A stretch of DNA of 64,000 nucleotides from Candidatus Magasanikiibacteriota bacterium. Lineage in GTDB: Bacteria; Patescibacteriota; Patescibacteriia; Magasanikbacterales; GWA2-37-8. Within the stretch, counting starts at the first letter, position 1. Each line of letters starts with the position of its first letter. Shown piece by piece: positions 1 to 46,720 of this stretch. The DNA lies in the NCBI GenBank assembly GCA_041665405.1, contig JBAYIZ010000005.1, positions 2,513 through 66,512 of the forward strand, given 5' to 3'. The notes under the pieces are model-generated. The model did not search any database. It saw only the letters and a program-made list of their open reading frames with translations, and had not been told where the DNA came from. A program made the position numbers and the translations under genes.

Positions 1-3
1 AAT

Positions 4-777
4 CTATTTTACTACCCACGTACTATCTGGAGAATTTGATAAAAAACTTTTTGCCAACACTCTACCATAAGGCGATGTAGCAATTTTAGTTCGGTCATCC
101 AACTTCTTTTCATCATCTTCCAAAAATATTTTATAAAGCGGCTCCAAGATATTACTTCCATTTAATAATCGCCAAATAAGAGTGTTATAAACACGATGAT
201 TATCATGAAGCCAACCCGATACTTCGTCATTGGCAAATTCACCAGTACAATCACAGTGATTTGGATCCTCCACTCCCATCATACATAGGTTGTTGGCAAT
301 TCCATTCATATCTCCAGTTTTTATTTCTTGTTCAAAATCATTGTACCATTTTTGTATTTCTAAGGGAGCTTTTTTGATATCAATTGCTTCTTCACGCGTT
401 TCCAAATCGTTATTAATAATATTCATTTTAAAACAGTTGGCACGACCAGAAAAAATTTTTTTAATATTATCAATTAAACGTTGAGCTTTTTCATTTGAGA
501 TATTTACAAAAGTTACACCACTAGCATCGTCCCATGTCTCAGTAATTGCTTGCATTGCTTCTATACTTATACCTAGCGTCACATGTCCGGACTTATTAAG
601 GTAATCAATTAAATCATCTTGCACACCAGCTTGATCCGGTGAACCAACAAAATGGATTACTAATGTTGCCCCAACTTGTTCTCTTCTCTCTGAGTTGGTT
701 GGTTCAACTAGGTGATCATGACTAATAGGAGATCTATCTGACATATAGGAATTTATTATATATAATTTTGAGTACAA
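4..777 (-). CDS. hypothetical protein; C-terminus runs off the window edge (no stop before position 1)
   Basis: 257-aa ORF on the minus strand. No motif I recognise. Leftmost cassette of the array; an extended -10 (tgttataat) lies upstream on the minus strand. Confidence 0.35.
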   Translation of the reverse strand: MYSKLYIINSYMSDRSPISHDHLVEPTNSERREQVGATLVIHFVGSPDQAGVQDDLIDYLNKSGHVTLGISIEAMQAITETWDDASGVTFVNISNEKAQRLIDNIKKIFSGRANCFKMNIINNDLETREEAIDIKKAPLEIQKWYNDFEQEIKTGDMNGIANNLCMMGVEDPNHCDCTGEFANDEVSGWLHDNHRVYNTLIWRLLNGSNILEPLYKIFLEDDEKKLDDRTKIATSPYGRVLAKSFLSNSPDSTWVVK

Positions 778-803
778 CTAGATTATAACATAATAGTCAA
801 AAT

Positions 804-860
804 AAAAAAGACGCCTTTTGATAAAAGCGTCTTATTCTGTACAGTGAAACTGGGTAGTTA
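804..860. repeat. cassette-boundary direct repeat R1: terminator-like hairpin AAAGACGCC..GGCGTCTT plus a divergent tail
   Basis: aaaaaagacgccttttgataaaagcgtctt is identical to the hairpin 3' of the tRNA at 8226. The tail tgtacagtgaaactgggtagtt is related to the tails of R2-R4. Confidence 0.6.
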
Positions 861-1286
861 TTAAGACGACCAATTCTCTCTAATGCACCATCTTTCATCT
901 TTTTGTATAACACTAATCTCAAACCAACCTGGCGGGTCAGAAGAATCAAATCGAAATACGAAAGTAGATGGATTACTACTAAATCGTACAAACTTCATCT
1001 CGAGCATCATCTTAGCTATACTATCTCGCCCGATTTCTCCAAAATCTGTATAAAAACGTTGTTCATCATCGGCGCGCTCAACATCACAGAGCACATCCGA
1101 TGGATATTTGAACGGTTCGATTTTTATTGCGTTCGCATACGATATTAACACGGAGCGCGTTTCGACTTTGTTTCGAATATATTTAATAGGATGTTTCATC
1201 CAGATCCAAATTGTCAACATTAATACACCCACCACTATTAACAGTAATAATATCAACTTTGATTTAAAAATTTTGAGATTATTCAT
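861..1286 (-). CDS. hypothetical protein with N-terminal membrane anchor
   Basis: 141-aa ORF with a hydrophobic N-terminal stretch (LILLLLIVVGVLMLTIWIW). No recognised domain. Confidence 0.4.
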   Translation of the reverse strand: MNNLKIFKSKLILLLLIVVGVLMLTIWIWMKHPIKYIRNKVETRSVLISYANAIKIEPFKYPSDVLCDVERADDEQRFYTDFGEIGRDSIAKMMLEMKFVRFSSNPSTFVFRFDSSDPPGWFEISVIQKDERWCIRENWSS

Positions 1287-1363
1287 ATTTGTTTCAGACA
1301 GGACTAATGCAAACTAATGTTTTACAATTTTGTATCAATCGGGTTTAATATAATTATTTATTT

Positions 1364-1609
1364 TTATAATTCATTTTTTATGTCCTCCCATTTTACTCCA
1401 CTAATTTTCTCAATTTCTTTTAACAAATAATACAGAACATCTTTTCTTAATTTTGATTGAATTGTAATTGATTTCTGAGTTTTAATCCATGTAGCTTTGT
1501 AATGACTACCGTCACCACCAGCTGTATCAATTATAAAACCGAGCCTTTGAAGAGCTCGGATAAATTTCCTACGCTTTATTTCTCCGGGTAAATCACTAAG
1601 CGAGGGCAT
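1364..1609 (-). CDS. hicA: HicA-like toxin of a type II toxin-antitoxin pair (mRNA interferase family)
   Basis: FIRALQRLGF...GGDGSHYKAT resembles the HicA GSH core. The track ORF extends to 1675, but the internal ATG at 1609 gives a typical 81-aa HicA and a 14-nt overlap with the upstream partner. Confidence 0.5.
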   Translation of the reverse strand: MPSLSDLPGEIKRRKFIRALQRLGFIIDTAGGDGSHYKATWIKTQKSITIQSKLRKDVLYYLLKEIEKISGVKWEDIKNEL

Positions 1610-1925
1610 ACTCTTCCTGTCTATCAGAAGTTTTGTAAATTTTGGCCTCTTTAGCGAACGAAGATGGTATATCAAAAGAAGTTAAAATTGCATCTTTAAC
1701 ATTTTCATCTAGTGTTTTCAAATCCTTACCAGAAGTTACTATTGAACCATATCTAAAATTGGTGCTAACTGCAACAATCATTCCGTCTTTCCCTTTTTCA
1801 TTTTTAAAATTAATCGGATCGTATAAACGAAAATATTGGTTTAATTCAAATAAACCCCTTGGTACAAATGATTTACCAAATAAAAATTTTATTAACTGAT
1901 CTTGGGCTTTTTTAGTTATAGACAT
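1596..1925 (-). CDS. hicB: HicB-like antitoxin (UPF0150/RNase-H-like fold), tentative
   Basis: 109-aa protein immediately upstream of and overlapping hicA. GMIVAVSTNF-RYGSIVTSGKDLKTLDENVKDAI loosely matches the HicB N-domain pattern. Confidence 0.4.
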   Translation of the reverse strand: MSITKKAQDQLIKFLFGKSFVPRGLFELNQYFRLYDPINFKNEKGKDGMIVAVSTNFRYGSIVTSGKDLKTLDENVKDAILTSFDIPSSFAKEAKIYKTSDRQEEYALA

Positions 1926-1995
1926 ATATTTATCGACTCACTAATATAACAATTTTTTACTAGTAAGTCAAGTATACCATAAACATAAATAATAC

Positions 1996-2170
1996 AAAAG
2001 ACCGCCCGTTGCCTAAATACAGAAACCAATTCTGAACTTAGGCAAGTGCGGGCGGTCGAGTGTCTGACCATATTCCCTTCCTTGTCTGACCTGGCGGTCA
2101 TAGGACGTCCTTTCGGACGGAACGACGGTCAACGTCGCTCTACCCCACCGTATTTCGGAGGATGGGGTGC
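1996..2170 (-). repeat. conserved ~175-nt GC-rich highly structured element, copy 1 (3' UTR of GC-rich ORF 2180..2509)
   Basis: About 90% identical to 7258..7430. On the minus strand it folds into: a hairpin CCCCAUC/GGUGGGG; a hairpin CGACG/CGUCG; a GAAA-tetraloop hairpin UCC-GAAA-GGA; GACC-GCCA-GGUC; GGUC..GACC; and a long terminal hairpin GACCGCCCGCACUUGCCUAA...UUAGGCAACGGGCGGUC followed by UUUU. Confidence 0.6.
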
Positions 2171-2179
2171 TTTTGATTA

Positions 2180-2509
2180 TCAGGCCTTCTTCCTTGGAGG
2201 GAAGATGTATGCGGACTCAGGCGAAAGAAGCCACCGATGATAGGACATCCGCATCGCCTCTGGATTTTGTCGAATTGACAGGGTAGTATCGAACCACTGC
2301 TGATAGGCTCGATTCAAGGCGTCCCCGTCTTTGCGCAACGTAGCGAGCGCAACTTGAGCCTCCTTTCGCCACACCGCTTCCTTCCTTTCTTGTGCTCTTC
2401 TAGGTTCATCCTTGGCGTCGTTGATGAACGGCAAAAACGCTACATACGCCAGGATCCAACAAAGCGCCAAGCCGAGAGTGATAGCACCCATTGCCTCGAG
2501 AATCTCCAC
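2180..2509 (-). CDS. GC-rich small membrane protein, hypothetical (foreign composition)
   Basis: 109-aa ORF with a GGAGG ribosome-binding site and an N-terminal transmembrane helix. Its Ala/Arg/Gly-rich, high-GC codon usage contrasts with the AT-rich flanks. Confidence 0.4.
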   Translation of the reverse strand: MEILEAMGAITLGLALCWILAYVAFLPFINDAKDEPRRAQERKEAVWRKEAQVALATLRKDGDALNRAYQQWFDTTLSIRQNPEAMRMSYHRWLLSPESAYIFPPRKKA

Positions 2510-2735
2510 GATTTCCTCCCTACTTCAGTGCAAAAACAAACAACAAGTTCTGCTGAGACAAACGCAAAGCAAAAAAGTTGTTTACAAAGCCAGTTCGTGT
2601 CTGAAGATTTAATTCTGCAAACATAAACTGGCTTTTGTTTTAGAGGGAATTATTAAAGAACTAATTAATTAGATAGTACTATCTATTATAGTGAGAAAAG
2701 ACAATCCAGTTGTGTATCTCTATTAAAATTTCTTA

Positions 2736-3311
2736 TCAAATATTCTTTAAAATAATATTCAATACATTATCCCAATCCATCCGACTGGTATCAATAGAAA
2801 ATATTGGCATTGCTGATTCACTAAATAATTTTTTAAGATATTTCTGTTGTTCTATATAATAATTAACTCTCTCTTCAAGCGTTCCTACTTTCTTGTGTTT
2901 CCAAGTTGCACCTCGTTGTTTATCTGCCAATTCAATTCGGTTTGATATATAATCATCTTGCATTCTTAATAAAATTGTAATTGGGTCAAAACAATTCAGT
3001 ACCTCATTTTCTAGACCAGAAAAAATGTTTAACTTTGAATTAGTTCTAAAAGCATGAGTGATAAATAATCGTTCGACAATAATGTAGCTGGTTGAAATCT
3101 TTTTAATGTTTTCAATAACATTTTTTAGATACTCTACTGCTTTGAGAGGATCTCTGTTTTCAAACAAGGGAACAGTGGTTTCTTCTTCAGAAACAAAAGT
3201 GATCTGATGTTTTTCTTGAAGATGTGATATCAGGTTGGATATGGTGGTTGTTTTGCCAGATGTTGCTATACCTTCAAAAATGATAAGTTTTGGTTTTGAG
3301 ACATCTTTCAT
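2736..3311 (-). CDS. P-loop NTPase / nucleotide(nucleoside) kinase-like protein
   Basis: Walker A motif IIFEGIATSGKTT near the N-terminus; 191 aa; overlaps the upstream ORF by 4 nt (operon). Confidence 0.5.
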   Translation of the reverse strand: MKDVSKPKLIIFEGIATSGKTTTISNLISHLQEKHQITFVSEEETTVPLFENRDPLKAVEYLKNVIENIKKISTSYIIVERLFITHAFRTNSKLNIFSGLENEVLNCFDPITILLRMQDDYISNRIELADKQRGATWKHKKVGTLEERVNYYIEQQKYLKKLFSESAMPIFSIDTSRMDWDNVLNIILKNI

Positions 3312-3811
3312 AATAATAACTTTTGCACCTTTTCTTCAAAACTTTTGTAATGGTAATGCATTGGAAAAGGAATGACGACACCATTATTTAAAACATTAAA
3401 ACCGTCATCACATAAACGTTTTTCTAATAACTGACAAACTGTCTTTTTGGCCAGCATCAGATTGACTTTTTTGTCACCAATAATACCTTTTAAATCATCC
3501 ACAAAATTCGAATAATTTTTTAATATCAGTTCATCAGCCTCTTTGTCTGGTAATTTGTCTACTGGAATATAAATAGGATCAACTAAAAAATATCCGCTAT
3601 TGGCGAAACAAGTAAGACCGTCGTGTTTAGTGTTAAATTTTTTCCCAAACAAACATTTCATTAATGACCGAAACAGTAATTCACTTGGCCTACCATCTGG
3701 GTTGTAAAAATAACCACCACCCGTAGGAAGAGATTCAAAAATAAAGATCGTTTTAAGCGACTTTGGTAGATATTGATTGCGTAATTTTTTATAGGATGAC
3801 TCTGAAGTCAC
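3308..3811 (-). CDS. hypothetical protein, co-transcribed with the P-loop kinase
   Basis: 167-aa ORF whose stop overlaps the downstream start by ATGA. No recognised motif. Confidence 0.4.
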   Translation of the reverse strand: MTSESSYKKLRNQYLPKSLKTIFIFESLPTGGGYFYNPDGRPSELLFRSLMKCLFGKKFNTKHDGLTCFANSGYFLVDPIYIPVDKLPDKEADELILKNYSNFVDDLKGIIGDKKVNLMLAKKTVCQLLEKRLCDDGFNVLNNGVVIPFPMHYHYKSFEEKVQKLLL

Positions 3812-3835
3812 AAAATTATTTTTAAATAAATATAA

Positions 3836-4099
3836 TTATTTTACTTCCAATTCTTGCATTCTATCATTTAAAACAGAATCTAAATCTTTTATTCCCAATT
3901 GAGAAGCAAGCACGAACGCTCCATAAAAAACATTAGCAATTCGCAGTTCAATATCTTTGTTATTTTTTGAAGCAACCCAAAGTTTAGTCAGCGACTCTTG
4001 AGATCCCAATATACATTCTTCAATATTAATCGGACTATTCTGACGAATAAAATTATCTTGTTTTTGAATGATTTGCAAGTATGAAGTAAGGGTTGTCAT
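3836..4099 (-). CDS. MazG-like nucleotide pyrophosphohydrolase (small all-alpha NTP-PPase)
   Basis: The C-terminal ELRIANVFYGAFVLASQLGIKDLDSVLNDRMQELE matches the MazG/NTP-PPase helix pair (E..ADVL.YL..LA..LGIDLE). The track ORF starts at 4192, but the first 31 codons are AT-rich low-complexity sequence, so ATG 4099 is more plausible. Confidence 0.45.
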   Translation of the reverse strand: MTTLTSYLQIIQKQDNFIRQNSPINIEECILGSQESLTKLWVASKNNKDIELRIANVFYGAFVLASQLGIKDLDSVLNDRMQELEVK

Positions 4100-4219
4100 A
4101 AAATAATCGACATGAATATAATAAATCAAAGTAATATTATCAGATAATATATAAAAACAAAAGACCGCTACCAAGTGCTGATTTACAAACACACTAACAT
4201 ATTTAATAAAAAATGCAAC

Positions 4220-4293
4220 AAAAAAGACGCCTCTTTTAAAAGCGTCCTACATTGTGCAGCCGATCGGGTAAGGTAGCAAACTATTTTTGAGAT
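4220..4293. repeat. cassette-boundary direct repeat R2
   Basis: aaaaaagacgcctcttttaaaagcgtcc hairpin variant followed by tacattgtgcagccgatcgggtaaggtagcaaactatttttgag. Confidence 0.65.
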
Positions 4294-4297
4294 TATT

Positions 4298-5962
4298 TCA
4301 TCTATTATTCTGAGATATTCTTATGAAATTTTGTTTTAATAATTCATTTTTACTCATGTCTACTAATTCAGATAATGACGGATTTCCTTGATACAGAGTC
4401 CATGCATACAATGGTGTATATCCATTCCTCCTCATCCAACCAGAATGAAACTGGCCTCTAGTACGAGTAGGTAGCGATTGCCACTTAGAAAATGCCTCCT
4501 CTAATTCTTGCAAACTGAATTCAACTGAACGTTTCTGGTGCTCTCTCTGATCCTGTTTATAAAAATTCTTCTTCAAATTTTCGTCTTTACTCAAAACCAC
4601 TATATCCTCAATAGACAAACTCTTTTTCCTAGCCCATTCAACCAATCCTTTATACCCATTATGACTAAGCCAACCACGTGAAAATCCTTTCTTGTGATCT
4701 GACGTCCATTTTTTAAAAGCATTCTCTAATTCAGTTAAGGCGGATTCCATGTTTCGAATTATTCCTGGATGATACTCCTGTTTTATAAAACTATCTTTTA
4801 ATTCTTGATTATTACTGTTAACGACCAATTCTGTTAATTTTGGATTTTCACCCCTTTTTGTCCATGCATATAAATTTTCGTAACCATTTTTCCTTAACCA
4901 GGCAATACTAAAATTACCTCTTTCAATTTCTTGACACGTTTTATAAAGTTCAAATGCCTCTTCCAATTCAATGGTAGCGGAATACAAATCACGATCTTTG
5001 CCTTCATATGTTTTAAAACTATCTTTCAATTGTTGATTTTTGCTTTTCGCCACTAATTCTTCAATTGATAGATTAATTCTTTTGCCTTTTGAATCTTTCC
5101 TATATGTCCAAGACGTTAAAGCTATATGATTGATACTTAACCAACTAATATTAAAATCTCCTCTATTCTTTATGGGCAAAGCCAACCACTCCTGAAAAGC
5201 ATTCTCTAACTCTACCAAAGCAGTTTCAGGCGTTCTATTTTTCATCTCAGATATTTCTTTCGAAGATTCTCCAGTTTCAGTCGATTTGGATATTAATAAT
5301 CTAACAATTTCTTGTTTCCACTCATCCGATGATTTATTAAAAATTACCATTGAAACTTTGTCTGAACCCAAAGATTTCAATTGATTTTTTGTATACTCAC
5401 CATACTTTCTCCAATCCTCTTTTTCAACATCATGGACTACAAATGTAGCATTTCCTTCTTCGTTATTTACTAAAACTAACTTCTTTATTCCAGGAATTAC
5501 AAAAACTTTGTAGCTTAACCTCCTCATCATATTGGGTGAATTCACACCATCGTGTACCTCATATTTCAAATCTAGGTCACTGAGAATTTCAATAAGAAAT
5601 CTTGTTCTCGGTAAAATATCTTTCTCTTCTATACCAACTCCACTTCCAGGAATGATTTCCCCTTCATCAGGAGGTAGAATTGTCTCATTTTCTATCACAA
5701 TCAAATCTGGCATTAACAATGGATTCAATTCTTTTTTTACCCTTAATTCTTTTACAAAATTATTTACATCTAAATGCAGGACTGGAGCTTTATTTCGACC
5801 AACGTCAATAATACTGAGGTAATTTATGGCTCCTAACATTTCAGCTATTGTTCTTAGGCTACTATTTGGATTAGACCTAATGAGGGTAAAAATTCTTTGA
5901 CTAATTTCAAAAGATAAAGCCTCTTGAACTATCTCTGAATTTTGTTCATCGTATTGAGACAT
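4298..5962 (-). CDS. large hypothetical protein: N-terminal domain of unknown function plus five tandem ~48-aa C-terminal repeats (helicase-associated-domain-like)
   Basis: The repeats ELENAFQEW..G.FS..WL..NGY..L..W recur five times. ELE(N/E)AF...G.F..GWL resembles the HA-domain consensus. The N-terminal domain has a possible PD-(D/E)xK-like VVHDVEK. Confidence 0.5.
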   Translation of the reverse strand: MSQYDEQNSEIVQEALSFEISQRIFTLIRSNPNSSLRTIAEMLGAINYLSIIDVGRNKAPVLHLDVNNFVKELRVKKELNPLLMPDLIVIENETILPPDEGEIIPGSGVGIEEKDILPRTRFLIEILSDLDLKYEVHDGVNSPNMMRRLSYKVFVIPGIKKLVLVNNEEGNATFVVHDVEKEDWRKYGEYTKNQLKSLGSDKVSMVIFNKSSDEWKQEIVRLLISKSTETGESSKEISEMKNRTPETALVELENAFQEWLALPIKNRGDFNISWLSINHIALTSWTYRKDSKGKRINLSIEELVAKSKNQQLKDSFKTYEGKDRDLYSATIELEEAFELYKTCQEIERGNFSIAWLRKNGYENLYAWTKRGENPKLTELVVNSNNQELKDSFIKQEYHPGIIRNMESALTELENAFKKWTSDHKKGFSRGWLSHNGYKGLVEWARKKSLSIEDIVVLSKDENLKKNFYKQDQREHQKRSVEFSLQELEEAFSKWQSLPTRTRGQFHSGWMRRNGYTPLYAWTLYQGNPSLSELVDMSKNELLKQNFIRISQNNR

Positions 5963-6088
5963 TTTGATGAGGTTAAATATAGAAATATTATATCTGTTTT
6001 ATGTTTAATTGTCTATTTATAAAATAAATTAATGCGCAAAAAAACTACAATTTGAGTGGCAAACTCCATTTCAGCAGTTAATAGAGAT

Positions 6089-6164
6089 AAAAAAGACGCC
6101 TTTTGATAAAAGCGTCTTTACATGTGCAGCCGATCGATTAAGGTGGTAAACTATTTTTGAGAAT
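6089..6164. repeat. cassette-boundary direct repeat R3
   Basis: aaaaaagacgccttttgataaaagcgtctttacatgtgcagccgatcgattaaggtggtaaactatttttgagaat. Confidence 0.65.
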
Positions 6165-6175
6165 TTAAGATAATA

Positions 6176-7108
6176 TTATTTAATATCTTTGCGTTCCAAA
6201 ATATCAAACCCGTCTTTTACCGCATCACACAAAAAATTTTCCAACTGGCTATTGTCTTTTTTAGTTTGAGCTTTATATAAAAAAGTATAATATAAACGCT
6301 TCTGTTGTTGGTGGATAATCGCCGGAGCAAAATTTTCTTTCAATAACATAGCTGTCATAAGCAGACGGCCAACACGTCCATTGCCATCGGAAAATGGATG
6401 AACTTGTTCAAACTGTCTGTGAACATCGGCGGATAACGAAATAATATCACTGGTAGATTTTGAGGCTAAGATTATAATCTCTCCAACCAGTTTTGGCACA
6501 CTCATAAAATTAGCAGTCGCCAGATTCACTCCCAAAATTCTCACGCCATGTTGACGATACAAACCGGCATCAGATTGAATACCGTTCATCAAAATACTAT
6601 GCAATTTCAATACAAAGTTTTCATCAATTTTTTCTTTCTTAAGAATATGACTAAACAAATAATTTAAAGCAGTTTGATGATTCTTTGCTTCCATTTGTTC
6701 AGCCAAACTTTTATTTGGCAACGCTACATTATCAAAAATAACAGCCGCAGTGTCTGGTTCAGTCAAGGTACTACCCTCGATGCTATTACTATGGTAGGTC
6801 AGCTTTAAGATAAGCTGGTCGCGAATATCTGGGTTATTCAAAATCTCCGCTACAATATTTTTATGTTCAGAAGATTTTTTGTTTAGAAATTGTTTTTTGG
6901 CAATCAATTGATTGGATGGAATAACTTTCTGGCCAGTCATTTCCAAAAACAATTCATCGATAGCTATCTGCATTTTTGTTCTCGGGATAGACTTTTCATT
7001 CCACCAATTATTGAAAGCCACAAAAGACACGCCGAGTTTATCGGCCAATTTGGTCTGGGAAAGGCCAGACATCTTTTGAATAGTCTCAAGTTTTTGTTTA
7101 ATTGTCAT
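6176..7108 (-). CDS. Fic-family protein (AMPylase/Fic-Doc fold) with an N-terminal XRE-type HTH
   Basis: Canonical Fic motif HPFSDGNGRVGRLL. The N-terminus MSGLSQTKLADKLGVSFVAFNNWWNEK is an HTH_XRE. Confidence 0.8.
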   Translation of the reverse strand: MTIKQKLETIQKMSGLSQTKLADKLGVSFVAFNNWWNEKSIPRTKMQIAIDELFLEMTGQKVIPSNQLIAKKQFLNKKSSEHKNIVAEILNNPDIRDQLILKLTYHSNSIEGSTLTEPDTAAVIFDNVALPNKSLAEQMEAKNHQTALNYLFSHILKKEKIDENFVLKLHSILMNGIQSDAGLYRQHGVRILGVNLATANFMSVPKLVGEIIILASKSTSDIISLSADVHRQFEQVHPFSDGNGRVGRLLMTAMLLKENFAPAIIHQQQKRLYYTFLYKAQTKKDNSQLENFLCDAVKDGFDILERKDIK

Positions 7109-7170
7109 AATAATGTCATTATATCAAACTTTATAAAGTTTGTCAAATATTGGTATACTTTATAAAGTTA
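7109..7170 (-). promoter_or_regulatory. Fic promoter with a twice-repeated 14-bp palindrome (putative autoregulatory operator)
   Basis: On the minus strand: TTGACA-N17-TATAAT, then 9 nt to the ATG (near-leaderless). The perfect palindrome AACTTTATAAAGTT overlaps the spacer (7126-7143), and a second copy, ACTTTATAAAGT, is at 7157-7168. Confidence 0.5.
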
Positions 7171-7171
7171 T

Positions 7172-7247
7172 AAAAAAGACGCCTTTTGATAAAAGCGTCT
7201 TTATATGTGCAGCCGATCGGGTAAGGTGGCAAACTATTTTAGAGAAT
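7172..7247. repeat. cassette-boundary direct repeat R4
   Basis: aaaaaagacgccttttgataaaagcgtctttatatgtgcagccgatcgggtaaggtggcaaactattttagagaat. Confidence 0.65.
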
Positions 7248-7257
7248 ATTTAAAAAC

Positions 7258-7430
7258 AAAAAACCGCCCGTTGCCTAAATACAGAATTCAATTCTGAACT
7301 TAGGCAAGTGCGGGAGGTCGAGTGTCTGACCAATTCCCTTCCTTGTCTGACCTGGCGGTCATATGACATCCTTTCGGACGGAACGACTCTCAGCGTCGCT
7401 CTTCCCCACCGTATTTCGGAGGATGGGGTG
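7258..7430 (-). repeat. conserved ~175-nt GC-rich structured element, copy 2 (3' UTR of GC-rich ORF 7440..8114)
   Basis: Same hairpin series as copy 1. The differences fall mostly in loops: UUGACC vs CUGAGA in the second hairpin loop. Confidence 0.6.
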
Positions 7431-7439
7431 ATTGGTGGT

Positions 7440-8114
7440 CTAGTCTTCGACCACCTTAAATGGCGACGGCCGGTTACCCATGACAATCGCCGAGAAAGAC
7501 TCAACCGTAACTTGCCCGTTGGGCGAGATCACGGTCAACTTCTCAATGATTCTCAGGGCATCGACCACAGTCAGCCGAAGCCGGCTTCCGTAATCGCCCT
7601 GATAGAGCTCAACCGATGGATGAGCCCGAAACGGTCCGAAGAAATCCGAGCGTGAAAACGAACCGAAGTACGCTTCCACACGCCATTTTCTTTCGAACAG
7701 CACCTGTCCGATCCAGAGCGTGGGGGCGACCGGCCCCCAACCCGAAAGACGCATGATGATGACGGGCTGGTCGCCGGGTTTGGATGTAGCGTATTCGTTT
7801 TGCCTGACACCCACGGAGTACGGAAAGATCTGGCGCACCAGTTTCCCTTCCGCGTCCAGCTCAAACTGAGCTTTGTACCCGCGCACGTTACGCCGCCACC
7901 ACTCCCTCAGCCACCGCGTCCAACCGCCTTCATAGAAGATGCCGACCGACCAGATGGCGAAGATCCACCAAGCCGCCGCCATGGCGATGCCACTCTCCAC
8001 CTTGTAGATCAGTTCAGCGCTAATCCCGATGAGGACAGCGATGAAGACGCACAGGCAGAAAGTGCCGCAGCGCACCGGGGTCTTCGGATCCTGAACCTTA
8101 CTTTCCTTTGACAT
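7440..8114 (-). CDS. GC-rich membrane protein, hypothetical (two TM helices plus ~130-aa soluble domain; possibly bPH-like)
   Basis: 224-aa ORF with a strong GAGGAG ribosome-binding site. TM segments FCLCVFIAVLIGISAELIY and AAAWWIFAIWSVGIFY. High-GC codon usage. It is the sole cargo of the tRNA-proximal cassette. Confidence 0.45.
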   Translation of the reverse strand: MSKESKVQDPKTPVRCGTFCLCVFIAVLIGISAELIYKVESGIAMAAAWWIFAIWSVGIFYEGGWTRWLREWWRRNVRGYKAQFELDAEGKLVRQIFPYSVGVRQNEYATSKPGDQPVIIMRLSGWGPVAPTLWIGQVLFERKWRVEAYFGSFSRSDFFGPFRAHPSVELYQGDYGSRLRLTVVDALRIIEKLTVISPNGQVTVESFSAIVMGNRPSPFKVVED

Positions 8115-8190
8115 GGGTTCTCTCCTCGTCAGATGATTTGACGGGTTAAAAATTATTATACATTCTAAAAAATCATTTGTCTATCAAAAT

Positions 8191-8225
8191 AAAAAAGACG
8201 CCTTTTGATAAAAGCGTCTTTATTG
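8191..8225. repeat. R5: the native copy of the repeat hairpin (tRNA terminator), abutting the tRNA 3' end
   Basis: aaaaaagacgccttttgataaaagcgtctttattgtgca runs directly into the tRNA acceptor stem. Confidence 0.65.
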
Positions 8226-8297
8226 TGCACCCATTAGGAGTCGAACCTAAATTTTCGGCTTCGCAGGCCAATGTCCTATCCATTGAACGATGGGTGC
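8226..8297 (-). tRNA. tRNA, hand-folded as tRNA-Arg (anticodon GCG); anticodon call tentative
   Basis: Reverse complement: GCACCCA-TC-GTTC-AATGGATA-GGAC-A-TTGGC-CTGCGAA-GCCGA-AAAT-TTAGG-TTCGACT-CCTAA-TGGGTGC-A. All four stems pair. U33 and A37 are present. No encoded CCA. Confidence 0.75.
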
Positions 8298-8311
8298 AGG
8301 AACTTTTTCAA

Positions 8312-8815
8312 CTAAATTTTCAATATCCGCCCCATGCGTTCGCTTAACGGCTCTTCTTCTTGGTCGAGATCTTCTTCCAAATATAGAGCCAAATATTCAC
8401 GAATTGGCATCGGATCATAATCGTACAGCGGCACTTGAATACGGTGATTCAACACATTGTCTTGTGAAAAATATAGATTCTTGGTAAACGGTGGGTTGTA
8501 TATTACCCAAAAACCTGTTAGTTCACTATAGCGGTAGTATTTTTTCCCAATCACTACTCCAGTATTGGTGACGGCAAAATAGACATCCATCGGCGCTACC
8601 ATATCTTGCATGAATAAAATTATCCCAAACAAAACTGTAATTAGCGCAAACAGATAATTGCCGGCTATCACTCCATATACGGACAGGGCAATCCCGAGTC
8701 CTCCCATTATCCAATACCATTTTTGACTGCGGTCGTGCGATTCATACTCCTTCACCGTCCACTCATATTGGACTTCTCCAATATTTACTTCCTCTTTTAA
8801 AATATTTTTTGGCAT
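8312..8815 (-). CDS. hypothetical membrane protein
   Basis: 167-aa ORF with two central hydrophobic helices (WYWIMGGLGIALSVYGVIAGNYLFALITVLFGIILF). Lies between the two tRNAs. Confidence 0.4.
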   Translation of the reverse strand: MPKNILKEEVNIGEVQYEWTVKEYESHDRSQKWYWIMGGLGIALSVYGVIAGNYLFALITVLFGIILFMQDMVAPMDVYFAVTNTGVVIGKKYYRYSELTGFWVIYNPPFTKNLYFSQDNVLNHRIQVPLYDYDPMPIREYLALYLEEDLDQEEEPLSERMGRILKI

Positions 8816-8831
8816 AAAAAATTTTTAACCC

Positions 8832-8905
8832 GTGGATGATACTGGATTCGAACCAGTGACCTTTGCAATGTGAATGCAACGCTCTAACCAGCTGAGCTAA
8901 TCATC
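8832..8905 (-). tRNA. tRNA-Val (anticodon CAC) by hand fold
   Basis: Reverse complement: GGATGAT-TA-GCTC-AGCTGGTTA-GAGC-G-TTGCA-TTCACAT-TGCAA-AGGTC-ACTGG-TTCGAAT-CCAGT-ATCATCC-A. Canonical GTTCGAATC T-loop. Confidence 0.75.
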
Positions 8906-8984
8906 CGTTGATTAGAGGCCATTATTACTTTAACACAAACCTAAAATAAAATCAACCCCGGACAGTTGCTTATTATCCGTTTTT

Positions 8985-10499
8985 GTGGTACACTTTTCCT
9001 ATTATATGTCACTGCAACAGCCAATAAATTTATTGGAACCCCAAAATTTGGAACTGGACGAACCTAAGCCAAAAAGAAGTAAACTATTTTGGCTGTTTTT
9101 TATTTTGGTCGGAATCTTGTTTATTGTTGGCTGTAATGTATATCGCAACTATTCTTTGGCAAAATGGCCCAATGAGCCAGAAAGTTATGATCTCAAGACA
9201 TTGCAACCAAAAAATACTGGCATTTTACAAACTGTGAAAAATTTTATTTTTCATTCTGACAATATCCTTGAAGGACAAAAGGATGACCGCATCAATATTT
9301 TGTTACTAGGTATTGGCGGCCCTGGTCACGATGGACCATATTTATCTGATACCAATATTATTTTGAGCATCAAACCTAGTACCAATGAAGTGGCGATGAT
9401 TTCCGTACCACGCGATCTCGGAGTGACTATTGGCGAACATGGTGTTAGAAAAATAAATTCGGCTGATTCATTTGGCGAAGCTCAGGCCCCTGGTTCGGGT
9501 GGAGAATATGCTCGCCAAATTTTTGCCAAAACTTTTGGAATCGATATCCCCTATTATGCACGTGTAGATTTTCAAGCTTTCCAAGAATTGGTGGACGAAG
9601 TTGGTGGAGTGACAGTGAATGTACCGCGCGCATTTGTAGATTACGAATTTCCTGGGCCAAATTTTTCTTATCGCACTTTGTCTTTTGATGCTGGTATGCA
9701 AGTTATGGACGGACAACGCGCGCTCGACTTTGCTCGTTCTCGCCATGGCAACAACGGCGAGGGTTCGGACTTTGCTCGTTCTCGACGTCAACAACTGATG
9801 ATCTCTGCACTCAAAGAAAAATTGTTATCTGTCGGAACTTATACCAACCCAGTACGTATTCAAAGTATTTTACAATCTTTATCTAACCACATCACTACCA
9901 ATTTGAATTTTGGTCAGATGATGTACTTGGCTAGTCTGGCCAAGGATGCTGATAAAAATTTAAAAATGTTAGTATTAGATAATTCTGAAACTGGATTTTT
10001 GAAATCATACATTGCAGACAGTGGTGCTTATATCTTGGCCCCTCGTACTGGTAATTTTGATGACATCAATCTCGCTGTGGAAAATGTGTTTGATAGTACC
10101 AAGACAAAAGTTGCACAAAATTTGTCTACTGAAAACAAATCCATTTTCCCTAGCGGCAAGATTCAAATCCTAAATGGTACTTGGCGTGCCGGACTAGCTG
10201 CCAAATATCAGCTCGGATTACAAGAAAAAGGTTTTTCTACTTTACCCGCCGCCAACAGTCCCAAACGACCGATCGATGTTACTACTATATATATAGTTAA
10301 TTCCAAAATTTCGAATGATATAGTGGTAGCATTACAAAAAGAGATCGAGGCTAAAGTGGAAAAAGGTTTGCCCGCGTGGATGCAAGAAGGCAACCTAGCT
10401 ACAAATTCTACTACCGAACAAACAAACCCAAATTTGAAATTTAATACAGAAGCCGATATACTGATTATATTAGGATCGGACTTAAGTGAAAATCAATAA
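8985..10499 (+). CDS. LCP-family (LytR-CpsA-Psr) cell-envelope phosphotransferase with N-terminal TM anchor
   Basis: TM segment LFWLFFILVGILFIVG, then INILLLGIGGPGHDGPYLSDTNIILSI...VPRDL (LCP core), plus a C-terminal LytR_C-like region. The start is probably an internal or alternative codon. Confidence 0.65.
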   Translation: MVHFSYYMSLQQPINLLEPQNLELDEPKPKRSKLFWLFFILVGILFIVGCNVYRNYSLAKWPNEPESYDLKTLQPKNTGILQTVKNFIFHSDNILEGQKDDRINILLLGIGGPGHDGPYLSDTNIILSIKPSTNEVAMISVPRDLGVTIGEHGVRKINSADSFGEAQAPGSGGEYARQIFAKTFGIDIPYYARVDFQAFQELVDEVGGVTVNVPRAFVDYEFPGPNFSYRTLSFDAGMQVMDGQRALDFARSRHGNNGEGSDFARSRRQQLMISALKEKLLSVGTYTNPVRIQSILQSLSNHITTNLNFGQMMYLASLAKDADKNLKMLVLDNSETGFLKSYIADSGAYILAPRTGNFDDINLAVENVFDSTKTKVAQNLSTENKSIFPSGKIQILNGTWRAGLAAKYQLGLQEKGFSTLPAANSPKRPIDVTTIYIVNSKISNDIVVALQKEIEAKVEKGLPAWMQEGNLATNSTTEQTNPNLKFNTEADILIILGSDLSENQ

Positions 10500-11871
10500 T
10501 ATGGCCACACTAGCAAAAATAGTGAACCTCGAACTGCCTACTATCGCCCTTGTCGGCCGTGTAAATGTAGGCAAATCTACTTTGTTCAATCGTCTCACCG
10601 AAAGTGATAAGGCGTTGGTTTCTGATATCCCTGGCACCACTCGCACTCGCAATGAAGGCAAAGCCATTTGGCGTGGCAAACATGTTCGAATTGTCGATAC
10701 TGGTGGTCTGACATTTTCTGATGACGTACCTTTGGAAAAAGAAATCATTATGCAAACCGAAGCCGCTCTCAAAGAGGCGGATGTGATAGTGTTTGTGACG
10801 GATATCAAAGACAGTCTATTGCCTCAAGAAAAAGAACTAGCCAAATTGCTTTTACAAAAAAAGAAAAATTGCCCAGTGATTTTGGTAGCCAACAAAGCAG
10901 ACAGTCCAGTAGAAAACGCCTTAAAATATGAACGTGACTGGCTCAAACTTGGACTAGGTGAACCGATCGCAATTTCTGCGCAAAACGGTTCTGGTCTAGG
11001 AGATCTAATGGAAGAAATTTTTTCACACTTAAAAAAGACTTTGAAAAAACCTCAAGTTTTGCCAGACATCGAACCTATCAAAGTTGCTCTACTTGGAAAA
11101 CCAAATGTTGGCAAATCTTCTTTGTTCAACAAACTTATCGGCGAAGACAGAGTGATAGTGAGCGATATGCCTCATACTACTCGCGAACCACATGATACGC
11201 TGGTAGAAGTAGACGGTGAACATATTTTGTTTATTGATACTGCTGGTATTCGTCGCAAAGCCAAAGTTGGTGGTTTGCTCGAACGTGTCGGCATAGGCAA
11301 AAGTATCGAAGTGATGAAACGCGCTGATATCGTTTTGTTTTTGCTAGACACTTCCTCCCCTATTACCGACCAAGATCAACAGCTAGGTGGATTGTTGCGT
11401 GAGAGTACCAAGAGTGTTATTATCGTGGTCAACAAATGGGATCTCAGTGAAGACAACACCGATTCTTTCCGCAATGATGTGAAAGAAAAAATCATGAAAT
11501 ATTTTCCACATATTGCTTATGCGCCGATTGTGTTTGTGAGTTCCAAAACTAGTTACCGCATTCACCAATTGTTCCCTTTGATAAAACAAGCGTGGGAAGA
11601 AAGACATACCGAACTTTCTGAAGAGGTTTGCGAAGAATTTATTCGCCATGTCACCAAAGATCATTTGCCATCTCGTGGCAAAGGTGTAAATCATCCAAAA
11701 ATTTTGGGCTTCCGTCAGATCAATGTTAACCCACCGATTTTTGAATTGTTTATCAAATACAAAACTTCTTTGAACATGTCTTATGTTCACTACCTAGAAA
11801 ATCGTTTGCGTGATCAGTTTAGTTTTTTTGCAGCTCCGATTGTTATTAAGTTAACTAAAACTAGAAGATAA
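10486..11871 (+). CDS. der: ribosome-biogenesis GTPase Der (EngA), two tandem G domains
   Basis: Two G domains, IALVGRVNVGKSTLFNRL and KVALLGKPNVGKSSLFNKL, plus a C-terminal KH-like domain. The likely start is ATG 10501. Confidence 0.85.
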   Translation: MKINNMATLAKIVNLELPTIALVGRVNVGKSTLFNRLTESDKALVSDIPGTTRTRNEGKAIWRGKHVRIVDTGGLTFSDDVPLEKEIIMQTEAALKEADVIVFVTDIKDSLLPQEKELAKLLLQKKKNCPVILVANKADSPVENALKYERDWLKLGLGEPIAISAQNGSGLGDLMEEIFSHLKKTLKKPQVLPDIEPIKVALLGKPNVGKSSLFNKLIGEDRVIVSDMPHTTREPHDTLVEVDGEHILFIDTAGIRRKAKVGGLLERVGIGKSIEVMKRADIVLFLLDTSSPITDQDQQLGGLLRESTKSVIIVVNKWDLSEDNTDSFRNDVKEKIMKYFPHIAYAPIVFVSSKTSYRIHQLFPLIKQAWEERHTELSEEVCEEFIRHVTKDHLPSRGKGVNHPKILGFRQINVNPPIFELFIKYKTSLNMSYVHYLENRLRDQFSFFAAPIVIKLTKTRR

Positions 11872-12030
11872 AATTTTCTCTAAAGATTGACGCCTCACAG
11901 ATATGAATTTTCTTGCGCTCAGACTAGCACCGAATTGTGGGTTTTACAGACAGCCATATTTAGTTCTCGGTGCTTCGGACAGTTCGCGCGGCGAAAATTA
12001 ATATCTGTTCGGCTTACTTTATTATATTTT

Positions 12031-36329: not shown

Positions 36330-36394
36330 AAGCGAAGTTTGTTCGCACTCTTTAGAATCTTCCTGGATTTTGAAGAGTGCGCACAGCTTCGTTT
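36330..36394 (+). promoter_or_regulatory. 65-nt imperfect hairpin in the leader of the GC-rich UPRT-like gene
   Basis: AAGCGAAGTTTGTTCGCACTCTT...AAGAGTGCGCACAGCTTCGTTT; GGAG ribosome-binding site 11 nt before the ATG. The GC content rises here, so the hairpin probably belongs to the insert. Confidence 0.4.
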
Positions 36395-36445
36395 GATTTC
36401 ACCAACCCACACCGTCGCTGAAGTAGCGATTGGAGATTAGAAGCC

Positions 36446-37267
36446 ATGGCCGAAAAGACTTACATGTCCCTGACTGCAGCCCCCGGAGAGATCCACCACA
36501 TGTACGGCGACAACGTGCACCTGATGCACGACCCGCTGGCCCTGACGTGGCTCGCCCGGCTGTGTCATCCGTCCTGCGTGCAGCCCGAGATCAATCGGCT
36601 CATCACCCTGCTGTACCAAAACCTCGTTCGCGAGGTGATCAACCGCGAGCTCCCGCGGCGGATCGTGCGCTCCGAGACCCGCATGCGCGAGTACACCGAG
36701 CACGGCTACTACGACGGCATCGTCATCGACCCCGACTTCGAGGTGACGACCGTCGACATCATCCGGGCGGGCATGTTGCCTTCGATGGTGTGCTACGACA
36801 GACTCAACGAGATCCTCGACCCCAGCCGCGTCCGCCAAGACCACATCATGATGAGCCGACTGGTCAACGTCGACCAACAGGTCACGGGCGCCGGTCTCTT
36901 CGGCAACAAGATCGCTGGTCCGGTCGCCGGTCGGTTGATCTTGTGCCCGGATCCGATGGGGGCTACTGGTGGTTCCATGGTCGAGGCCGTGCACTTCTAC
37001 ATGAACGAACTGGACGGACCGCCGGAGCGTTTCTGCACGCTGAACCTGATCATCACCCCGGAGTACCTGAAGAAGATCCAGAGCGAGTTCCCCGACGGCC
37101 TCGTGACCGTCTACGCGTACCGCCTGGACCGTGGCTTGTCCGACCCCGACGTGCTGGCCGACATCCCCGGCGCTCAGTGGGACCGCGAACGCGGCCTGAA
37201 CGATCGCCAGTACATCGTGCCGGGCGCCGGCGGCATGGGTGAGATCATGAACAACGCGCTGTCGTGA
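36446..37267 (+). CDS. divergent uracil phosphoribosyltransferase-family protein, GC-rich foreign gene (273 aa, insertions and extended N-terminus)
   Basis: IIRAGML.SMV resembles Upp ILRAGLGM. LILCPDPMGATGGSMVEAV resembles Upp ALIVDPMLATGGS. RQYIVPGAGGMGE resembles Upp GYIIPGLGDAGD. Three long overlapping ORFs on both strands are typical of high-GC coding DNA. Confidence 0.55.
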   Translation: MAEKTYMSLTAAPGEIHHMYGDNVHLMHDPLALTWLARLCHPSCVQPEINRLITLLYQNLVREVINRELPRRIVRSETRMREYTEHGYYDGIVIDPDFEVTTVDIIRAGMLPSMVCYDRLNEILDPSRVRQDHIMMSRLVNVDQQVTGAGLFGNKIAGPVAGRLILCPDPMGATGGSMVEAVHFYMNELDGPPERFCTLNLIITPEYLKKIQSEFPDGLVTVYAYRLDRGLSDPDVLADIPGAQWDRERGLNDRQYIVPGAGGMGEIMNNALS

Positions 37268-37292
37268 TAGACAGCGAAGGAGGACAACGTGT

Positions 37293-37330
37293 CGCCCCTT
37301 CTCCTCCCTTGTCGGGACGGAGAAGGGGCG
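37293..37330 (+). terminator. GC-rich hairpin 3' of the UPRT-like gene (actinomycete-style; no U-tract)
   Basis: CGCCCCTTCTCC...GGAGAAGGGGCG. Confidence 0.35.
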
Positions 37331-37379
37331 GCGCATTCACTTAAATCAAAAAAAAATTAATTGTTTTTTTAATTTATAC

Positions 37380-45770: not shown

Positions 45771-45930
45771 ACAGAATAATTATATAAAAATAAACGAAAA
45801 AAGTCAAATAAACTAAAAGAACATCAACTAGTGATGTTCTTTTAGAGACGGGCGACTAATTCAAGTCGCCCTTCCCCCCTTTGGTGGGCCGCGTCCAACC
45901 TTGTGGTTCGAACGTGGCCACGTTGACTAT

Positions 45931-46680
45931 CTACGCCCGCATCTCCTGCAGGCGCTTCTCGATCTCGGCCAGACGGACGCGAATCGTCTGGTAATGAGAA
46001 CGCAACTTCTCCATGGTGATGTCGAGCTCTCGAATGACCCCTCGCTCGATCTCAACTTCGGCAGGCGTGATGATCGGGGTCTTCCTCCGCCGCCATTCGC
46101 CATCTTCCAACAACCTGTCGTTCAAGGCAAGCTGGAGACGATAGGCGGCGGCCTCGGTTCGGACATATCGTGGCTCTAGGGCATGCATCTCGTCGACGAG
46201 ATTGCACGCCTCAGCGATCAGTTCGTCCTCTTCGACCGACACGACGTCAGCTTCGTCGGCTACGCGTTCGACTTCGACGTCTGGTGAGTGCTCCGACTTC
46301 TGTTCGACAGTCTCTTCTGCCTTCTTCAGTTGCTGGAAAAACTCCTCCGCCCTCAGCCCTGGTGGAACTATCAGGTGGAACGATGCCCGAGAGTTCCGGT
46401 CAGTGGAAGCCTGAACCCAAACCAAGACAGCTGTGGGTCCTTCTGCCATTCTGATGCTGATGCCAGGCGAAGGTGCCGGTCTGATCTTGGTGACAAACCG
46501 AGCCCTGAACACACCCTCAAACCCGGCGCGTTCAAGAAGACTCGCCATCGCCTTGGCCGATTCAGCAATCCATTGGCCGTTGCCTGCTGGCCTCTTGATT
46601 TCCACTCGAACCTTGCACATGTTGCCTCCTGCAACGTTGCGTACAGACACCCCAAACGACGACCTCCGCCGAAGGGACAT
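45931..46680 (-). CDS. GC-rich hypothetical protein (N-terminal ~100-aa domain, acidic linker, C-terminal coiled coil); foreign composition
   Basis: 249-aa ORF with multiple shadow ORFs. The likely start is an internal Met (MCKVRVEIKRPAGNG). No recognised domain. Confidence 0.4.
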   Translation of the reverse strand: MSLRRRSSFGVSVRNVAGGNMCKVRVEIKRPAGNGQWIAESAKAMASLLERAGFEGVFRARFVTKIRPAPSPGISIRMAEGPTAVLVWVQASTDRNSRASFHLIVPPGLRAEEFFQQLKKAEETVEQKSEHSPDVEVERVADEADVVSVEEDELIAEACNLVDEMHALEPRYVRTEAAAYRLQLALNDRLLEDGEWRRRKTPIITPAEVEIERGVIRELDITMEKLRSHYQTIRVRLAEIEKRLQEMRA

Positions 46681-46720
46681 TAGAACCTACATTAAAAATG
46701 GGGTTTTGTCAATACTCAGT

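Follow-up and report, generated by a model that had tools for sequence, protein, structure and literature searches.

Bacteria of the candidate phyla radiation (CPR) have tiny genomes, and little is known of how they gain accessory genes. Insertion at a tRNA gene has as its classic footprint a set of direct repeats overlapping the tRNA 3′ end. Integron cassettes are generally promoterless and are expressed from the promoter Pc; their attC sites carry R′′ and R′ sites, and clusters of attC sites lacking integrases are termed CALINs. GC-rich intergenic islands reportedly mark structured noncoding RNAs in AT-rich genomes, as is said to have emerged from the work of Klein and Eddy and from the later GC-rich intergenic region (GC-IGR) screens of the Breaker laboratory. 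Morons, finally, are defined by a promoter and terminator of their own together with a deviant GC content (PMC3594210). Here we describe module 2, a GC-rich single-gene unit within a 64,000-nucleotide (nt) stretch of contig JBAYIZ010000005.1 (positions 2,513 to 66,512) of Candidatus Magasanikiibacteriota assembly GCA_041665405.1, a stretch that we call the window. The unit sits beside a tRNA-Arg gene, carries one open reading frame (ORF) for a 224-amino-acid (aa) protein and ends in a ~180-nt noncoding element, type A, that recurs behind unrelated ORFs. Our preferred reading, to which we assign a probability of roughly 0.6, is that module 2 is an autonomous, moron-like single-gene unit with a new conserved RNA 3′ module, situated in a tRNA-linked exchange hot spot.

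All parts of the unit lie on the minus strand in the order tRNA, T repeat, promoter, Shine-Dalgarno (SD) sequence, ORF, type A element and R4 repeat, and together with its promoter and the arm of R4 it measures 1.02 kb. The window has an overall GC content of 0.371, and the GC-rich block, at ~57% GC, occupies 7252–8135; composition steps from 0.23–0.35 outside to 0.56–0.60 inside, sharply on both sides, at ~7253 and 8135. Flanking genes have a GC content of 0.30–0.40 compared with 0.57 in the unit, and the GC content at third codon positions (GC3) of the 224-aa ORF is 0.72 against 0.22–0.43 in resident genes. An earlier note on this DNA, made from the letters alone, had described a self-contained GC-rich unit of foreign composition at this place, and that description holds, with promoter, SD sequence, ORF, structured 3′ tail and terminator all found. 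Its statement that the unit is the only content between R4 and the tRNA-proximal repeat also stands, except that a 48-nt AT-rich stretch holding the promoter is enclosed along with the GC-rich block. The GC transitions coincide with the ends of the predicted transcribed part.

The predicted sigma-70-type promoter (8155..8183, minus strand), composed of TAGACA, a 17-nt spacer and TATAAT, matches the consensus at 11 of 12 positions and directly abuts the T repeat. Recognized by consensus match only, it is AT-rich, unlike the part that it would transcribe. An SD sequence read by eye, GAGGAG (8122..8127, minus strand), stands 7 nt upstream of the ATG of the 224-aa ORF (7440..8114, minus strand, from the ORF list; GC 0.57), which NCBI names hypothetical protein WCV83_01920 in a Candidatus Magasanikbacteria metagenome-assembled genome (MAG). 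In the AlphaFold2 model (predicted local distance difference test score 71.6), the protein has two N-terminal transmembrane helices, as the earlier note had predicted, followed by a third helix and a beta-rich C-terminal domain. The sequence has no match in Pfam, PADLOC, PHROGs or PDB sequences, and the model bears no significant likeness to PDB or BFVD structures. A word-indexed search of 5.8 billion clusters returned only the protein itself, and exhaustive phmmer/HMMER searches of 1.84 billion representatives yielded seven remote relatives (E 6e-15 to 7.5e-4; 31–38% identity), mostly of similar length, that have the motifs GW..WLRE.W..NVRG, SGW and EDAL..L..LT in common. Because such remote relatives share motifs at E values down to 6e-15, we take the 224-aa ORF to be a real gene of a very rare family. 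Proteins of this family may be candidates for an accessory role at the membrane, for instance in exclusion or defence. The earlier note had asked whether homologs elsewhere are trailed by the element too: type A is absent behind the relatives in loci L004–L008 and L022.

Some further observations concern this family. One relative adjoins the 3′ end of a tRNA remnant at a contig end, a remnant read from the sequence that ARAGORN did not call. In L022, the 75 nt that separate the gene of a 276-aa relative from the end of the contig (8832–8906) contain, 3′ of that gene, a G/C-stemmed hairpin whose loop includes CAUCCUCCGA, the same 10-mer as in the first loop of type A. A type I toxin–antitoxin system was considered for module 2 and rejected, as the ORF encodes 224 aa instead of <60 aa and no plus-strand promoter-like site occurs in 7250–7440.

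The resemblance to morons is close in several respects: module 2 is a single small ORF of deviant GC content between unrelated genes, with an intrinsic terminator and a predicted promoter of its own, and its cargo is a membrane protein, as is HK97 gp15. The unit differs from morons in that it does not lie in a recognizable prophage, no structural or integrase genes being nearby, and in that its 180-nt multi-hairpin 3′ module is common to different cargo genes. To our knowledge, a conserved multi-hairpin 3′ module shared between cargo genes is not a described moron feature. No PHROGs match was obtained for the 224-aa cargo or most island ORFs, the lone match being to a thymidylate-kinase family (191-aa ORF), and the module as a whole had no blastn match among plasmid records or among 50,697 phage records.

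The type A module at 7252..7432 (minus strand) begins 7 nt past the stop codon, with its first stem ~10 nt past it, and is 93–94% identical to a second window copy at 1990–2171. The earlier note had placed the element at 7258–7430, with borders close to those measured here; its position is wholly on the minus strand, 3′ of the ORF. The parts of the module are P1 (with an 11-nt loop, CCUCCGAAAUAC), P2, P3 (with a GNRA loop), P4, a purine-rich linker and a bulged terminator hairpin with a U-run. The terminator, a long GC-rich hairpin followed on the minus strand by UUUUUUGUUUUU, is kept in all four copies of type A that we found. The predicted minimum free energy of the copy at 7252–7432 is −75 kcal/mol, with z scores relative to shuffled sequences of −5.1 on the minus strand versus −3.3 on the plus strand; the copy at 1990–2171 gives −84.9 kcal/mol and z = −7.8. 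A covariance model built here, R1, scores these copies at 189 and 197 bits, respectively, and the differences between them fall mostly in loops and junctions. In the consensus of the four copies, the P1 loop reads CYUCCRAAAUAY (11–12 nt), the P3 loop is GAAA in one species and GUAA in another, and the bulged terminator hairpin comprises 24 base pairs. The consensus structure pairs in 98.3% of cells compared with 31–45% in slid-partner controls, and double changes of the compensatory kind are seen in nine pairs, of which six belong to the upper stem of the terminator and one belongs to P4, as opposed to 0–3 such pairs in the slid controls. These changes back the predicted fold, and with four related sequences they are suggestive, not conclusive.

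Searches of Rfam 15 with window positions 1–12000 and with each element alone gave nothing above noise for the element, the best matches to it being miRNA and snoRNA models at 10–22 bits (E 0.17–9). The best-supported reading of the sequence evidence is that type A is a new conserved, structured RNA 3′ module outside Rfam. It is like the RNAs of the GC-IGR screens in being GC-rich, structured, covarying and noncoding within an AT-rich genome, and unlike them in being attached to a GC-rich coding cargo as a 3′ element, not a 5′ riboswitch-like one. Several other identities were tried and set aside. A group II intron domain V/VI, a ribozyme, tmRNA and a tRNA-like remnant have no support in Rfam, and inspection revealed no T-loop motif; a riboswitch or attenuator acting on the downstream gene was rejected because the downstream genes are unrelated and have their own promoters, and a second terminator stands behind the module 2 copy. 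Exact 16–25-mer scans with the element and the R/T repeat found no match in genome contigs. A single match in a metagenome scan (L001) falls in coding sequence on an unrelated contig with 36% GC, and we attribute it to chance. Among IMG/VR viral contigs, five patterns had no match, and the 12 matches to one 16-mer all failed the covariance model and are likewise attributed to chance.

The four copies of type A come from three species, each lying ~10–13 nt past the stop codon of a different, unrelated GC-rich ORF (GC 0.53–0.57, GC3 0.58–0.72), and every copy is within the hypervariable stretch that has tRNA-Arg on one side and a conserved 182-aa gene on the other. Copy 1 of the window (1990..2171, minus strand; 93% identical to 7252–7432) follows a 109-aa ORF (2180..2509, minus strand; GC3 0.59) with a GGGAGG SD sequence, a GTG start and a predicted N-terminal hydrophobic helix; we found no homologue of this ORF, which is probably coding. 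The remaining two copies were detected by blastn and R1 in syntenic loci of relatives. The copy in L015 (2176–2353) is full length, ~70% identical and located behind a cytidine-deaminase-like GC-rich ORF, and that in L011 (8496–8637) is a deletion variant without P2 and P3, behind an unrelated GC-rich ORF of 147 aa, which immediately follows tRNA-Arg.

At the opposite end of module 2, the tRNA-proximal T repeat (8184..8229, minus strand) consists of the intrinsic terminator of the tRNA, called as such by a terminator scan, and of TGCACA, which overlaps the last nucleotides of the tRNA; we propose it as an attachment core. TGCACA plus the hairpin recurs at the repeats R2, R3 and R4, the 30-mer core of T is present exactly at four sites of the window versus 0 expected, and the outermost copies (8184–8220 and 797–833) are identical at 37 of 37 positions. 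Module 2 is flanked by direct repeats of ~41 nt that include the 3′ end of the tRNA. It is closed by a distal T copy (7165..7211, minus strand; TGCACA plus TATAAAGACGC..GCGTCTTTTTTAT), which differs from the tRNA-proximal copy only by a 1-nt indel and precedes the promoter of a neighbouring Fic gene. This copy is the core of R4 (7170–7247), which begins 5 nt past the type A element and is 94% identical to R3 and 73% to R2; ahead of the core, R4 has an a-arm of ~36–43 nt (7212..7247, minus strand) that contains AGTTTGCCAC. The motif AGTTTRCCAC stands on both sides of the T core (window 6056–6065, 6143–6152 and 7226–7235; also L015 ~9128–9137), with four occurrences against 0.18 expected, and is a possible protein-binding site of the arm type.

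The Fic unit offers an indication of movement. In L015, a sister species, Fic is the first unit after the tRNA and is bracketed by a 38-nt direct repeat made of the tRNA terminator and the last 5 nt of the tRNA, with a homologous a-arm downstream. The Fic/DOC proteins of the window (6176–7108) and L015 (8119–9048), whose genes come with promoter–operator palindromes and an R repeat, are 91% identical, compared with 67% for the LytR proteins and 75% for a 167-aa protein encoded at the same two loci. The excess of Fic over LytR identity argues that the T-bounded unit moved between lineages recently, and since the T repeat both overlaps the tRNA end and brackets the over-conserved Fic, it behaves as an attachment core. 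As far as the sequence can be read, the repeats and the tRNA 3′ end are the footprint of serial site-specific insertion. Like tRNA-targeting islands and their tandem accretions, the array lies right 3′ of a tRNA with repeats overlapping the tRNA end, consists of serial units each closed by a repeat copy and varies in content among close relatives. It is unlike them in that we found no tyrosine or serine integrase within 10 kb on either side or among 44 window ORFs, in that the units are 1.0–1.9 kb in size with one gene each and in that the core is mostly downstream terminator, with only 4–5 nt of the tRNA itself.

The 3′ end of this tRNA-Arg gene (anticodon GCG; 8225..8297, minus strand; ARAGORN, and Rfam tRNA at 62 bits) anchors a variable island. 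Through the neighbouring LytR-family protein (43–87% identity) we retrieved 13 syntenic loci, most of them from MAGs labelled Magasanikbacteria, and the tRNA-Arg is in the same place in 10 of the 13. EF-Tu, the 182-aa gene, tRNA-Arg, the 167-aa gene, tRNA-Val and LytR are conserved at the locus; between the 182-aa gene and tRNA-Arg, content differs wholly from species to species. The length of this stretch ranges from 1.3 kb (L009), 1.9 kb (L010) and 4.3 kb (L011) to ~9.2 kb for the window strain and more than 9 kb for L015. The in-window part of the island (834..8183, minus strand), delimited from repeats, Pfam matches, the gene table of L002 and synteny, comprises four T-delimited units, namely module 2, Fic, a 554-aa protein and a mixed unit with MazG-like and kinase-like genes, module 1 (which ends in type A copy 1) and HicAB genes. 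From there the island reaches ~1.9 kb past the start of the window, up to the conserved 182-aa gene.

Further GC-rich minigenes occur in the variable stretch, each with a host-type promoter. Those adjoining the 182-aa gene (L002 18115–19057, just past window position 1; L010 7395–7862 and 8755–9235; L011 5000–5900) share another conserved 3′ module, which we call type B, and at one position their 5′ untranslated region (UTR) is conserved as well; two such minigenes stand next to the 182-aa gene in three species. Type B consists of a hairpin with the loop AUUCRAAGGAG, an AT-rich spacer and a terminator. Its frame is conserved, yet the ORF inside it in the window strain cannot be aligned with that of L010 and L011. 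The minigenes of L010 and L011 are orthologous to one another, with 54–65% aa identity and a GC content of 52–61% in both species, and use the same codon at fewer than half of their conserved residues. That orthologous minigenes are still GC-rich after such long divergence implies that high GC is not merely the mark of a fresh import.

In our preferred reading, an AT-rich host-type promoter would drive a GC-rich mRNA that encodes the two-transmembrane, beta-rich membrane protein and ends in a ~180-nt structured 3′ UTR with an intrinsic terminator. Module 2 would be the tRNA-proximal member of a ~9-kb island that fills the gap between tRNA-Arg(GCG) and the 182-aa gene in one clade of Candidatus Magasanikbacteria. 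Units may enter or be exchanged at a ~40-nt core composed of the terminal nucleotides of the tRNA 3′ end and the terminator hairpin, that is, the T repeat, with every event leaving a further copy of the core; R4 would be one such copy plus a 43-nt arm. Type A would serve as a shared RNA-level 3′ end with a role in termination, stability or regulation, and would be what stays constant in a pool of GC-rich cassettes with differing ORFs; its conserved sequence probably also offers the homology through which the ORFs in front of it are swapped. We do not class the unit as an integron, a prophage moron or a member of an integrase-bearing island, because we looked for a defining feature of each in and around the island and did not find it.

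Several points weigh against this reading. The earlier note had pictured the module as a mobile, repeat-bounded cassette, and although the element does travel with different ORFs, three of the four type A copies are not bounded by repeats, copy 1 included (its unit, 1990–2560, has no R repeats at its borders), which leaves just one unit between T repeats. It may be that insertion at the level of units has nothing to do with the type A module. The copies number only four, they come from three species and are related, and the covariation counts are small. No integrase, transposase or relaxase is listed in the gene table within 10 kb on either side, and a Pfam scan of 44 window ORFs revealed no recombinase domain, so that the mechanism of insertion is something we can only infer. 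The same 10 kb on either side hold no phage genes, for which reason we use the term moron by analogy only. A model of import followed by amelioration, moreover, does not predict the lasting GC-richness of the L010 and L011 minigenes.

A further idea is that the island is a cassette system of a kind that has not been described, in which GC-rich ORFs of a dedicated mobile pool would be exchanged within fixed, structured UTR frames (the 3′ module of type A, and the 5′ UTR together with the 3′ module of type B), the modules would act, as RNA or DNA, as recognition or homology sites and some process in the life cycle of the cassettes would itself keep their GC content high inside a 37% GC genome. 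We consider this doubtful.

An integron-like arrangement, in which the type A, type B and R modules would be attC-analogous DNA sites for a recombinase encoded elsewhere, with single-gene cassettes inserted beside the tRNA and ORFs swapped in fixed frames, accounts for some of the same observations and is in our view unlikely. As in integrons and CALINs, the locus is a co-oriented array of single-gene units with mostly ORFan cargo, each closed by a conserved repeat containing a hairpin, and a single kind of 3′ element stands behind four ORFs that are not related to one another; type B units keep their promoter, 5′ UTR and 3′ module while the ORF is replaced, and the Fic unit has been exchanged between lineages. 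Against this, a regular-expression search of 700–8300 on both strands for R′′ (RYYYAAC) and R′ (GTTRRRY) core sites 35–140 nt apart found 0 pairs, and neither intI nor any other recombinase turned up in the 10 kb on either side or among the 44 window ORFs. The units also have their own predicted promoters, near-perfect in both module 2 and Fic, unlike integron cassettes. In addition, type A is strand-specific, ends in a U-run as an RNA terminator does and is not at a repeat boundary in L011 and L015.

A different alternative is that type A is chiefly a trans-acting small RNA (sRNA) processed from the 3′ UTR, with the ORF a mere carrier and the P1 loop, as a mimic of the anti-Shine-Dalgarno sequence, pairing with other mRNAs at their ribosome-binding sites. 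No other single-stranded stretch of the module is as conserved as this C/U-rich loop, in which 3 of 12 positions vary across species and which is predicted to be unpaired in three of the four full-length mRNAs. Moreover, the 3′-UTR-derived sRNAs of enterobacteria are compact and end in a terminator, as type A does. On the other hand, the L011 copy lacks P2 and P3, from which it follows that much of the body of type A is dispensable, and folding back of the loop onto the SD sequence of its own mRNA is predicted in just one of the four units. We consequently discarded this fold-back as a general mechanism, and we judge the sRNA explanation as a whole to be improbable.

The earlier note had favoured acquisition from a high-GC donor on the grounds of an actinobacterial-like codon bias, such that the module would be a recent import and the element a co-carried donor sequence. 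The contrast in composition is indeed strong (GC3 0.72 against 0.22–0.43), and two other GC-rich single-gene islands lie in the window, one of them with a GC3 of 0.88. Nevertheless, we consider this origin very unlikely. Not one relative of the 224-aa protein from a high-GC genome was found among the 1.84 billion representatives or the 5.8 billion clusters, and the relatives that can be placed are GC-elevated genes (0.48–0.62) on contigs of 41–45% GC. A donor of ~70% GC would give a GC3 above 0.72, a value that comes close to those of ~50% GC bacteria within the phylum itself: in L019, a Magasanikbacteria MAG of ~50% GC among the syntenic loci, housekeeping genes have a GC3 of 0.49–0.64, a range that those of the GC-rich ORFs overlap. 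The element is furthermore kept at the same locus in three Magasanikbacteria species, the promoter is of the host type and the orthologous minigenes retain their high GC. Composition, host-type promoters and the spread of relatives are better accounted for by a donor pool of moderate GC content than by an actinobacterial one, and we infer that this pool is CPR-associated (~50–58% GC).

The gene is present in two assemblies, the 73.9-kb contig of the window in ENA and an independent 1,619-nt JGI contig (L003), the source metagenomes being ENA ERZ27249449 and JGI 3300037810. L003 is 100% identical from the T repeat through promoter, ORF, element and R4 to nt 420 of Fic, and the 18 positions at which it differs are all in its final 90 nt. 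Identical junctions in an independent assembly indicate that the borders of the block are not an assembly artefact. A chimera or contamination, by which a GC-rich fragment of another organism was joined into a low-GC contig, is suggested by the composition jump and nothing else, and this negligible possibility is already refuted by the junctions on both sides being identical in an assembly from another data set, by the analogous modules at the same locus in MAGs of unrelated studies and by the interlocking of the GC-rich part with promoter and repeats. The differences between the assemblies, 18 in number, all fall within Fic codons 141–170 (L003 1529–1616, corresponding to window 6599–6686), and such clustering suggests that the JGI sample contains either another allele of Fic or a recombination tract.

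If our reading of an autonomous unit in a tRNA-linked hot spot is correct, the locus is a site of recurrent insertion at one tRNA gene, with no recombinase gene nearby, for foreign single-gene units that would be self-expressed, and type A is a new RNA motif of ~180 nt, with covariation, that is a marker of such units across species. A search of the literature on Magasanikbacteria or Patescibacteria yielded nothing relevant on GC-rich or tRNA-linked islands. Should the pattern of fixed frames and swapped ORFs prove true in more genomes, it would point to a form of cassette exchange distinct from integrons, and one would have to ask what keeps a gene pool GC-rich when the genome around it is AT-rich. 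Even on a conservative view, the covariance model provides a handle for finding this gene pool in metagenomes.

The other cargo of the island is varied. In the 554-aa protein (window 4298–5962), which matches no family, an internal repeat of ~225 nt (75 aa) occurs four times. In window 1364–1925 and 2736–4192, a HicA-like ORF with a weak Pfam match lies beside a 109-aa ORF at the position expected for HicB, and a thymidylate-kinase-like protein with weak PADLOC matches to VakA and mad8 is found as well as a MazG-like protein; cargo of the HicA, MazG and kinase kinds has a flavour typical of toxins and defence islands. In L021, a GC-rich, hairpin-rich insert of ~170 nt (8990–9175) directly follows tRNA-Arg and is bounded by a 13-nt duplication of the tRNA 3′ end (GGTGGGGGCACAA); this insert is a miniature insertion footprint at the same tRNA in a distant relative. 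The L015 locus, which is 42% GC, includes a GC-rich gene set (2359–6079) with GTP cyclohydrolase II-, orotidine monophosphate decarboxylase-, guanylate kinase- and cytidine deaminase-like genes and two paralogous Cys-rich proteins of ~110–120 aa, and this set appears to be an imported nucleotide-metabolism or modification module.

Two GC-rich single-gene islands lie elsewhere in the window. The third such island of the window (36330–37340) carries a 273-aa uracil phosphoribosyltransferase-like gene (Pfam 1.9e-13) with 63% GC and a GC3 of 0.88, for which a truly high-GC source would be needed. It has a long 5′ hairpin and its own terminator and is placed between ruvA and a 406-aa gene that is fumarate-lyase-like by inspection only. 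The fourth (45840–46700) consists of a 249-aa ORFan with no match in Pfam, PADLOC or PHROGs (58% GC, GC3 0.66), followed by the hairpin GGGCGACTTGAATTAGTCGCCC, and sits between ileS and a 154-aa gene.

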